From a virus (taxonomy: Duplodnaviria > Caudoviricetes), in the IMG/VR virus record IMGVR_UViG_3300038301_000366, positions 1-55,847 of that record: a stretch of 55,847 nt of DNA. The stretch is one strand, 5' to 3'. The notes beneath the pieces are model-generated. The model was not told where the DNA came from, searched no databases, and worked only from the letters and a program-made list of their open reading frames with translations. Shown one piece after another: positions 28,274 to 30,487 of the stretch. Position 1 is the first letter of the stretch, and every line of letters begins with the position of its first letter. The translations under genes and the position numbers were made by a program.

Positions 28274-28669
28274 ATGAAAAGATCAGCATCAGAAATCATT
28301 AATGAACTTGAGCAGAGAATCGCTAGCCTTGAGAAGCAATCTTCCTCTCCTGTTTTTGAACTTGAGGGGCACATCTACGAAGGTTCAAATGGTGATTATT
28401 ATGTCCGTAAGCGAGGCGACCTTAAGGAGATCACTAGTTACATCGAAAGTTGGCCTAATAGAGTCTTAATTGCAGAAGATGAAGGTTATGATTGGAAGAT
28501 AAAGTATGACTATAAGCACTTCTTTGGTTTTACTGCATCTAATGGGCTAACAGAGCTTGAACTGTTTTGTGTAGAGGGAGAATGTAGGACTGAAGTACGT
28601 CAGCTTGAGTTACTTCTTCGCAAAGTACTTTTAATTCCTCGTAGTGTTCGCACTGACTTCAACAAGTAA
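28274..28669 (+). CDS. Leader-tagged hypothetical protein (MKRSASEIINELEQRIASLEKQS)
   Basis: Start reassigned to 28274 from the shared leader and the AAGGAAGG RBS; body resembles the ORF at 55423. Confidence 0.75.
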   Translation: MKRSASEIINELEQRIASLEKQSSSPVFELEGHIYEGSNGDYYVRKRGDLKEITSYIESWPNRVLIAEDEGYDWKIKYDYKHFFGFTASNGLTELELFCVEGECRTEVRQLELLLRKVLLIPRSVRTDFNK

Positions 28670-28688
28670 TCTGAAGAAAGAAAAAGCA

Positions 28689-29372
28689 ATGAGAAGAAGA
28701 GCCTCAGAAGTAATTCATGATTTAGAAATAAGAATCGCCCATCTTGAAAGAGAAGCTTTTTTGGGTGATTCCCTAGATTCAGTTAAAAGAAATCTCGTAA
28801 AGTTATTTGATAAGATACCTTACATGAGAGAGATCATTGCTTTACTCAAAAAGGTTTCTAATACTAGAAGCATGAAGGGGGCTCGCACTCTTGCAAAGCA
28901 ACTAGTGTATATTTACGATTATGATCCTGAGTATCAAATCTTAGAAGATCATATCATGAAAACGGAGAGGACTTTGAAAGGTCGTATTGGGTTGGCTTTA
29001 GATATGCTAGTTTCGACTGCCGAACTTAAACTAGCTAGAGATCAGTCCCCTTCTGAAGTTGCTTTGAGAAAGTTTACTCAGGGAGTTCCTGCGATATTAG
29101 TTTTGGCGGCGATACTTCAACAAATTTATTTTGTAGTCTCACCGATGCTGAGTGGGGTGCTTTTATATGCGAGTGCTACTGTTATTTTCTCTATCATTAC
29201 TTATGTTTTAGCGGTGGGTTATAATAAGTTATCTGACATTTTAGAGCCAATCTTAGAGGGTAGAGGTTCACAATCTAAGCTCAGAACGAGTAGTGGTTCA
29301 ATGTCTAGGGTTGCTTACGCTCTTGAAGAGGCTATTCAATATCACAACCTAGAAGCAGAACGGTTAAAGTAA
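28689..29372 (+). CDS. Leader-tagged membrane protein (MRRRASEVIHDLEIRIAHLEREA)
   Basis: Start reassigned to 28689; two TM-like segments. Confidence 0.75.
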   Translation: MRRRASEVIHDLEIRIAHLEREAFLGDSLDSVKRNLVKLFDKIPYMREIIALLKKVSNTRSMKGARTLAKQLVYIYDYDPEYQILEDHIMKTERTLKGRIGLALDMLVSTAELKLARDQSPSEVALRKFTQGVPAILVLAAILQQIYFVVSPMLSGVLLYASATVIFSIITYVLAVGYNKLSDILEPILEGRGSQSKLRTSSGSMSRVAYALEEAIQYHNLEAERLK

Positions 29373-29374
29373 CC

Positions 29375-30487
29375 ATGAGAAGAACTGCATCAGAAATCAT
29401 TAATGACCTTGAAATTAGAGTAGCCGAGCTAGAGAAAGAAGCGGGCTTTATAGATGATATTTCAAGCACTTTTAATGGGCTTGTTAATATCCCTAAGAAC
29501 ATTGTTAAGAAGATCATCAATGGGTTTGCGGATATCTACAATACAATACAGCTTGAGTTTGAGGGAAATGAATCCAAGATTAACGACTCTTTAGGGGCGT
29601 TGTTGGGTTCAAGGGTTTTTAGAGCGATGGCGGGAGTGACAACTACAAGAGCGGGCTTACCTAAGATCGTTTCTTTCAATGCTTCAGTGCCTTTAAACTC
29701 AATATTCACAGGGGGAAAAGCTGAAGATAAAAAGATTCAGTTAAAAGACCTTGTTAAAAAGTATGTGGGTGAAAACCAAACGAGAATGAAAAGTGCTTAT
29801 CTTTCTTGGTATTCGGATTTCAAACACATCCTTAACCCTAAAAAGATTAGTGAAGGTGAGAGTTTTAAAATCTTCATGGATGCTCTTAAAAGGTATTCTA
29901 AGGTACTTTATCGGTTTTTCACATCTCTCATAGGGGTAGTGGGGATAATGGCTTTAAAAGGTACGGTAGTGTCCACCATCATAGTGATGATAGCTCGTTT
30001 GATCGTCCAAGCTTCAGGTTTAAGAACCACTCTAGCAGATATGACTGAGTATACAGCTTTGAGTCAAAATACAAGGGTTCGTATTGTACAAGAAGTCCCT
30101 TCGACCACACAGCTACCCACGATAGAAGAAGCCCAAGACCTTGCTAAAAAAATGGAAGTTGCAATGTCAAAAGGTGATCTTACATTAGACGCTATCCCTG
30201 CTTCAGATAATAACTTTCTTCAAATCGAAACAACAACGATAGAAACGCCAATGTCTCAATATCAACCCATAAACTTGGATGCAGATCAGGTTAAGGATTA
30301 TCTAAAACAAAACATAGGTAGTTTTGCACCACTCATCCTAACAGGGTTTTTAGCTCTTTTAGAGAAAGCGATGTATCGTTGGGTTGTCAATACTGAAGAA
30401 TATGATGAGATGGTAGAGGGTAAGACAGCGAGTCAATATCCTGCCATCACTTATCTAACGTATAAGTTAGAGACAATAGCTTTATAG
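29375..30487 (+). CDS. Leader-tagged membrane-associated protein (MRRTASEIINDLEIRVAELEKEA)
   Basis: Shared leader; hydrophobic segments; C-terminal KTAS. Confidence 0.78.
   Translation: MRRTASEIINDLEIRVAELEKEAGFIDDISSTFNGLVNIPKNIVKKIINGFADIYNTIQLEFEGNESKINDSLGALLGSRVFRAMAGVTTTRAGLPKIVSFNASVPLNSIFTGGKAEDKKIQLKDLVKKYVGENQTRMKSAYLSWYSDFKHILNPKKISEGESFKIFMDALKRYSKVLYRFFTSLIGVVGIMALKGTVVSTIIVMIARLIVQASGLRTTLADMTEYTALSQNTRVRIVQEVPSTTQLPTIEEAQDLAKKMEVAMSKGDLTLDAIPASDNNFLQIETTTIETPMSQYQPINLDADQVKDYLKQNIGSFAPLILTGFLALLEKAMYRWVVNTEEYDEMVEGKTASQYPAITYLTYKLETIAL

Follow-up and report, generated by a model that had tools for sequence, protein, structure and literature searches.

Short N-terminal peptides shared by otherwise different proteins are described in several systems, and we compare them here with tag A, a 23-residue leader on four genes of the window. 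The window is the entire IMG/VR record IMGVR_UViG_3300038301_000366 (55,847 bases, 40% G+C, CheckV completeness 18%), a fragment of an uncultured huge phage. In phage T4, the capsid targeting sequence (CTS) is carried by IPI-III and Alt; CTS cargoes are often encoded side by side and the CTS is portable to foreign cargo (PMC3012670, PMC9024508). For DarB of phage P1, about 30 N-terminal residues suffice to send a reporter into the capsid (PMC9024508). A hydrophobic groove of the C39 peptidase LahT150 takes up the leader of its substrate in helical form; any cargo is tolerated, and the substrate leaders end in Gly-Gly, Gly-Ala or Gly-Ser (PMC6363468). Short trimeric coiled coils with the R-hxxhE motif are a further point of comparison (PMC3653964).

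Tag A shares with the T4 CTS the architecture of a short conserved N-terminal peptide on diverse small accessory proteins, but it has 23 residues against about 10, is unrelated in sequence and occurs in 9-31 copies per genome; the complete relative yielded neither a protease nor a capsid family of the T4 type, and encapsidation of the tagged cargo would be argued by analogy. The gp21 site of T4 is (L/I)-x-E, and no such site can be read in the tag consensus or in the four window tags. Like the DarB packaging signal, tag A is an N-terminal stretch, whereas the DarB signal is described for one protein and tag A is family-wide. The likeness to the double-glycine leaders (LahT, PCAT1, ComA) consists of an N-terminal helical leader of 15-30 residues, diverse cargo and, putatively, one tolerant peptidase. 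In contrast to these leaders, tag A ends in (Q/E/K)(A/S)(S/G/A), without Gly-Gly, Gly-Ala or Gly-Ser, the candidate phage peptidase is joined to variable modules and not to an ATP-binding cassette (ABC) transporter, and the cargo consists of viral proteins of 90-400 amino acids (aa), with cleavage being putative. With the R-hxxhE coils tag A has R-(I/V)-A-x-L-E and the heptad spacing in common, although its surface positions are conserved too and a trimeric state would be putative. Tag A is a member of neither the T4 CTS, the DarB nor the double-glycine class, some defining features of each being absent.

Tag A is real: it is a portable leader under strong selection that occurs very widely in uncultured huge phages. 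All four window genes lie on the + strand and share the start M(K/R)RxASE(I/V)(I/L)xxLExR(I/V)AxLE(K/R)x(A/S). The first copy (28274..28342, 23 codons, MKRSASEIINELEQRIASLEKQS; 57.0 bits by the local hidden Markov model, HMM) opens P1 (28274..28669, 131 aa), whose cargo is soluble. The second (MRRRASEVIHDLEIRIAHLEREA, 28689..28757, 57.1 bits) begins P2, a 227-aa protein (28689..29372) with two hydrophobic segments within residues 131-170. P3 (29375..30487, 370 aa, hydrophobic segment 181-199) starts with the third copy (29375..29443, MRRTASEIINDLEIRVAELEKEA, 60.0 bits), and the distant P4 (35859..36560, 233 aa) with the fourth (35859..35927, MRRTASEILNGLEMRVARLERTA, 53.5 bits). The six-frame regular-expression scan of the whole window found exactly these four copies and none besides, and the local HMM separated them (53.5-60.0 bits) from the next window match at 9.9 bits. 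All four leaders agree in coordinates and strand with the original prediction, a model's reading of the letters.

A leader profile was built from 25 leaders and searched against 1.84 billion representative proteins. Among the 150 best matches, 142 begin at residue 1, seven at residues 5-11 and one at residue 190 of a protein that bears another tag at residue 1. P1 has 3 homolog clusters in all, and in the two closest (129 aa, 86-87% identical) the tag Met is the first residue. Because homologs begin there, the tag Met is the better start for P1 and P2, for which the open reading frame (ORF) lister had chosen 28232 (ATG) and 28644 (GTG), respectively; the ORF track does hide two copies, as had been pointed out.

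Pairwise BLASTP of the four window proteins gave alignments that stop at residue 23-25 in five of the six pairs, and ordinary whole-length paralogy of the four, which the original prediction had named as the contrary outcome, was not observed. The claim that similarity ends abruptly after residue 23, with unrelated sequence downstream, holds for these five pairs; 'unrelated' was slightly overstated for P2 (28689) and P3 (29375). Their tag-seeded alignment reaches about residue 59 at 44% identity, while with the tag removed no significant collinear match is left (best E 0.019, not collinear). Both carry hydrophobic, membrane-like segments, and they may be distant paralogs. P1, P2, P3 and P4 matched no family in Pfam or PHROG. 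P3 orthologs, 91% identical, are present in three IMG/VR contigs (54-173 kb), and another, 44% identical, lies on a complete 312,136-bp relative with terminal repeats (the 312-kb relative), inside a tandem array of tagged paralogs that have a few residues beyond the tag in common (EAGF/LxD...). P4 has no relative found in IMG/VR. Its AlphaFold2 model (11-sequence alignment, mean predicted local distance difference test, pLDDT, 63.9) shows a helix of low confidence for the tag (residues 5-26), then residues 27-36 without secondary structure, then alpha/beta domains, so that in this model the tag would be a separate helix followed by a linker; none of at least 500 PDB fold matches of this model reached E<=1e-3.

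The leader profile detected 1113 protein clusters at a threshold of E<=1e-3, and 73 when this was set to E<=1e-10, with varied cargo, which is what the check proposed with the original prediction (a leader HMM against phage metagenomes for diverse partners) had looked for. The 150 best tagged proteins have a median length of 134 aa. At E<=1e-3, four related records hold 14, 11, 24 and 9 tag copies and four further records of 227-376 kb hold 31, 17, 12 and 12; the tagged genes are dispersed over the genomes of relatives. A degenerate DNA pattern for the tag matched no stretch in 185,579 bacterial and archaeal species (one genome each) and at least 120 stretches in IMG/VR. In the listed IMG/VR stretches every pattern match opens an ORF (178/178), and 167 of these ORFs (median 145 aa) also end inside the locus. 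The tag, queried as 33 aa, had no match among 50,697 GenBank phage records, and neither 20 kb of the DNA nor the P3 protein matched GenBank phages. The tag is restricted to viral contigs. Literature word searches, which are blind to sequence motifs, returned no description of tag A.

Behind the tag the proteins differ. The 146 cargoes of at least 30 aa, with lengths from 43 to 396 aa, form 118 components by BLAST, of which 99 are singletons. Membrane-like segments were detected in 4 and Pfam families in 2 of the 150 tagged proteins (WGR and DUF5419), the tagged proteins matched nine PHROG families with at most three members each, and a JmjC/cupin domain is present in one tagged protein encoded by the 312-kb relative. 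Hundreds of unrelated cargoes share the tag, and fused and duplicated tags occur, in line with the proposal of a portable, shuffled cassette. The targeting role that was proposed together with it is plausible, and tag A is probably an undescribed protein address label.

The tag consensus is MRRSASE(I/V)IRNLEMR(I/V)ARLE(K/R)Q(A/S). Counted over the 150 best database matches of the leader profile, L12, R15, A17, L19 and E20 are present in all 150, and A5 (147), S6 (140), E7 (140), R18 (133) and R10 (120) are near-invariant. K/R occupies position 21 in 145 matches and A/S position 23 in 147; S/G/A comes next, at position 24, in 88, and past it the sequence is without preference. The end of the tag is A/S followed by small residues. 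The two bracketing (K/R)x(A/S) sites that had been noticed in the window are genuine family features, with positions 3-5 matching in 25/25 aligned leaders and positions 21 and 23 as given above. The hydrophobic residues follow a heptad a/d pattern, and R15-(I/V)16-A17-x-L19-E20 matches the R-hxxhE motif, residue 16 being I/V in 149 matches and T in one. The would-be solvent-facing S4, S6, E7, R10, N11, R18 and Q22 are conserved as well, and this all-round conservation, beyond the hydrophobic stripe, fits recognition by one partner.

Codon usage was compared among the tagged genes within each of three genomes. The same residue is encoded by a different codon in 36-38% of cells, including TCA/AGT for Ser and AGA/CGT for Arg, and third codon positions differ at 0.44-0.48 versus 0.20-0.26 for positions 1 and 2. 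The high synonymous variation with the peptide kept argues for selection on the protein and excludes a purely nucleic-acid element; nucleotide identity is 0.68-0.72 within the tag versus 0.23-0.42 in the flanks. In one relative (G001, the record behind L001), a conserved element, TC(A/T)TTAACCTTAA-N-CAAATGGAGAA, which includes GGAGAA, lies upstream of about eight tagged genes, ends 5-8 bases before the tag ATG and is almost confined to tagged genes there. Neither the window nor the 312-kb relative has this element.

Single ORFs with two or three whole or partial tags occur (L001:644-1981; P0014, P0066). Among them we observed an in-frame fusion that keeps the Met of the second gene and a tandem tag duplication, and some are fused neighbouring tagged genes; read from their sequences, these ORFs suggest recombination within the tag.

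In our tentative reading, tag A would be a cleavable leader and dock on a shared phage partner, perhaps to load proteins into the virion. It would work at the protein level: a helix about 23 residues long, with a flexible linker behind it, would be the common handle by which a single phage-encoded partner takes hold of unrelated small proteins of one huge-phage lineage. The helix would dock on the conserved C39-fold cysteine peptidase of this lineage, as bacteriocin-type leaders do, and the peptidase would clip the tag at the small-residue boundary [K/R]-x-[A/S]-[S/G/A]. The likely purpose would be to load a changeable set of accessory proteins or to release them at a set time, with the virion as the most plausible destination. 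We infer the binding, the cleavage, the bond cut and the destination alike, with graded confidence: the tag very probably binds a common partner, its clipping by the C39 peptidase is possible and held tentatively, and it is doubtful that the cargo ends up in the head.

The candidate partner was detected in a relative, where a gene adjoining three tagged genes (L001:12939-13982; homologs P0164-P0283) encodes a 348-aa protein whose first 124 residues match Pfam Peptidase_C39_2 (26 bits, cut-off 24). Residues 1-176 are 85-93% identical in three of four further large tag-bearing records, and the peptidase is also present in the complete 312-kb relative; the relatives in which it was found are G001, G003, G005, G006 and G007. 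We detected 492 homologs, proteins of 192-583 aa for which the usual precomputed domain is PF13529, with C-terminal parts that vary and no fusion to an ABC transporter. Cys20 and His103 are invariant in 113 aligned sequences. A PDB sequence search with the peptidase gave no match. The fold search with its AlphaFold2 model (mean pLDDT 86.9) gave 41 PDB matches at E<=1e-3, the closest being leader-bound LahT150 (target-normalised template modelling score, TM, 0.81-0.83; root-mean-square deviation 2.5-2.6 A), the ComA peptidase domain (0.81-0.86) and PCAT1. The LahT150, PCAT1 and ComA peptidase domains together reach target-normalised TM of 0.74-0.86, and staphopains are also among the matches. 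The complex prediction of peptidase residues 1-176 (111-row alignment) with tag A (25-row) scored 0.00 and speaks neither way.

As an observation on the peptidase itself, its domain is 62-97% identical across 120 listed homologs and is joined to wholly different C-terminal modules of 20-400 aa. In 106 of these 120 the domain ends in ...GRQ(V/I)MAS, a junction similar to that of tag A, after which the variable modules follow. The peptidase protein itself has the build of a tag with cargo.

The sole GenBank phage record with the peptidase is LR745208.1 (an uncultured, distant phage, 485 kb, 55% G+C), where it is 49% identical. Tag A was not found in this phage. In a de novo comparison of its N-termini the largest cluster was a different 28-aa leader, M(T)TLRSKLIRLAHENPALRPQLLPLLKEA(A/G), with 11 copies on ORFs of 124-351 aa, 10 of the copies being N-terminal. 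Comparing the cargoes of the eight copies found first gave 28 pairs, none of them similar. Ten of the 11 copies have the ending (K/R)(E/Q/T)A(A/G/M), which is close to that of tag A. The window carries this type of leader at the N-terminus of ORF 13476-14042 (+ strand, RKKLIRIAYDNPHLRSKILPTL, E 1e-6) and a fragment of it at about 11450-11488, inside ORF 11159-12412 (LIRLAYENPSLRP). Phages with the peptidase carry more than one kind of portable leader, with a similar boundary. The comparison of the two leaders, which covers two lineages, is the best support for a processing site. It is also conceivable, though we consider it rather unlikely, that a huge-phage lineage has its own intracellular leader-peptide system, in which interchangeable leader families sharing a [K/R]-x-A-[A/G/S] boundary are read and clipped by a highly conserved C39-type peptidase, so that each genome could load dozens of hypervariable effectors, keep them silent or release them on cue. 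The leader families of such a system would be tag A and the helix-NP-helix leader of the distant relative, found once in the window, an assignment that is similarly doubtful.

Several results weigh against docking on the C39 peptidase and delivery into the virion. The peptidase is absent from G008, a tag-bearing record that is 73% complete, and the window, an 18%-complete fragment, is without the peptidase gene. Since a phage that lacks tag A has the peptidase too, the link between the two is not exclusive, and co-occurrence of tag and peptidase within one clade is weak evidence. With a pseudomurein endoisopeptidase among its fold matches, the peptidase could equally be a wall-degrading or other enzyme. 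The Gly-Gly, Gly-Ala or Gly-Ser ending of C39 substrates is absent from tag A: the five commonest residues are Q/K/E/T/S at position 22, and position 23 has A/S/T/R, with no Gly at either. If the cut falls after residue 23, the hydrophobic register of the tag (-5, -8, -12) matches that of LahT (-4, -7, -12) in part. Regarding the destination, no capsid, scaffold or prohead-protease family was recognised among the 53 window ORFs, and the head would be assigned by analogy only. The PHROG tally for 138 ORFs of the 312-kb relative has no head genes among the 25 of 140 families listed, and Peptidase_S77 and Gp23 were found in none of three records, including the 100%-complete relative, although very divergent homologs might escape. 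The tagged genes are scattered round the genomes, each with its own upstream element in one relative (G001), which would also suit early, non-virion genes.

Alternatively, in the style of T4, the tag could attach to the scaffold core of the prohead, as the original prediction proposed, or to its inner shell, and be removed by a conventional prohead protease that escaped recognition, without any C39 peptidase. This is unlikely in our view. Its architecture is that of the T4 CTS, a short conserved N-terminal peptide on diverse internal proteins (PMC3012670), the packaging signal of P1 DarB likewise occupies 30 N-terminal residues (PMC9024508), and the window tags lie in a co-directional block with sheath-like and tail-fibre genes, the 453-aa neighbour being syntenic with the tag array. 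However, the complete relative gave neither Peptidase_S77 nor Gp23, the window gave no scaffold, the tag offers no (L/I)xE site and the tagged genes are dispersed. We regard it as improbable to the same degree that the tag is a short coiled coil which trimerises its cargo or co-assembles tagged proteins with no separate receptor. The R-hxxhE motif, the heptad a/d pattern, the predicted helix and the natural proteins with two or three tags are consistent with such self-association; yet the tag is only about 2.5 heptads long, a self-pairing coil would not need the conserved solvent-facing residues (S4, S6, E7, R10, N11, R18, Q22), and more than 1000 unrelated small proteins would be given the same oligomeriser for no evident reason.

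Less probable still is an address other than the virion or the peptidase; the membrane, a route of secretion, a compartment of the phage and a host protein would be examples. All-round conservation suits any single receptor, two of the four window cargoes have membrane-like segments, and cargo enzymes such as those with JmjC and WGR could act in the infected cell. Against this stand the membrane-like segments in only 4 of 150 cargoes and the character of the tag, which, as its sequence reads, has a narrow hydrophobic stripe and many charges, unlike membrane anchors or Sec/Tat signals; the sigma-factor PHROG match in the window speaks, weakly, against a nucleus-forming phage of the phiKZ type. 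We consider it very improbable that the 69 conserved bases serve cassette recombination or expression, with the peptide incidental. The upstream element that travels with about eight tagged genes in G001 and the fused and partial tags would favour such a nucleic-acid element, but the peptide is kept while synonymous variation is high, nucleotide identity in the tag is modest, and the element is missing from the window and the 312-kb relative. Ordinary whole-length paralogs with a conserved N-terminus are hardly credible: P2, P3 and the array of the 312-kb relative share slightly more than the tag, whereas singletons make up 99 of the 146 cargoes, cargo length ranges widely, and folds as different as JmjC and WGR stand behind the same tag.

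Some further readings were set aside by inspection of the letters: a Tat or Sec signal (no hydrophobic core), a membrane anchor, a kinase site, and a nucleus-import signal (the phage has a sigma factor).

Should the tag be an address label, more than 1000 families of small proteins of unknown function form one functional class, the accessory cargo of huge phages, in which proteins for host takeover or against defence are likely to be found. The 23-residue tag is a simple experimental handle. A link between the leader and the C39 peptidase, if true, would extend a principle of bacterial secretion and maturation to viruses, and a leader-peptide system, if true, would be a reuse by a virus of the leader logic of bacteriocins and RiPPs (peptides made by the ribosome and modified after translation).

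In the window, the tagged genes sit in a long co-directional block with probable virion genes, which include a sheath-like protein and a tail-fibre PHROG match. A 453-aa protein (31859-33220, + strand; E 1.5e-190 to the 312-kb relative) adjoins the tag array in both genomes; it has no match in Pfam, PHROG or the PDB sequences, and the protein atlas gave only a weak lead to a T4 neck protein (TM 0.37; family on 19% of one cluster). A 274-aa ORF had no match in the PDB sequence search. Between 25500 and 37000, neither promoter-like sites (14 versus 22.2±4.5 in shuffles) nor terminator-like sites (9 versus 8.1±3.0) are above chance. Directly upstream of P1, a 474-aa protein (26787-28211, + strand) has zinc-finger-like motifs, the repeated ...NLKRYGV... 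and Pfam DUF7487 (E 5e-49), and is possibly a mobile endonuclease-like insertion. A 515-aa protein (23150-24697, + strand), conserved in the 312-kb relative, has a weak AAT match (peptidase C45, N-terminal nucleophile hydrolase; E 2.6e-5) and a Cys at residue 6 after MYKRS.

A second short motif, approximately (K/R)xAS..(R/K)(V/I)A..(Y/F)(L/M), was observed at or near the C-termini of window ORFs: at 25249-25278 (end of ORF 24709-25299), at 35405-35434 (end of ORF 34487-35458) and, on the - strand, at 39407-39436 (inside ORF 39005-39748). In relatives it stands after the peptidase domain, at module junctions and at the ends of several ORFs adjoining the peptidase. For the 312-kb relative, [KR][STQ]A[SG] occurs in the last 30 residues of 9 ORFs versus 1.4±1.2 in shuffles. 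At the C-terminus, this motif may correspond to what tag A is at the N-terminus.

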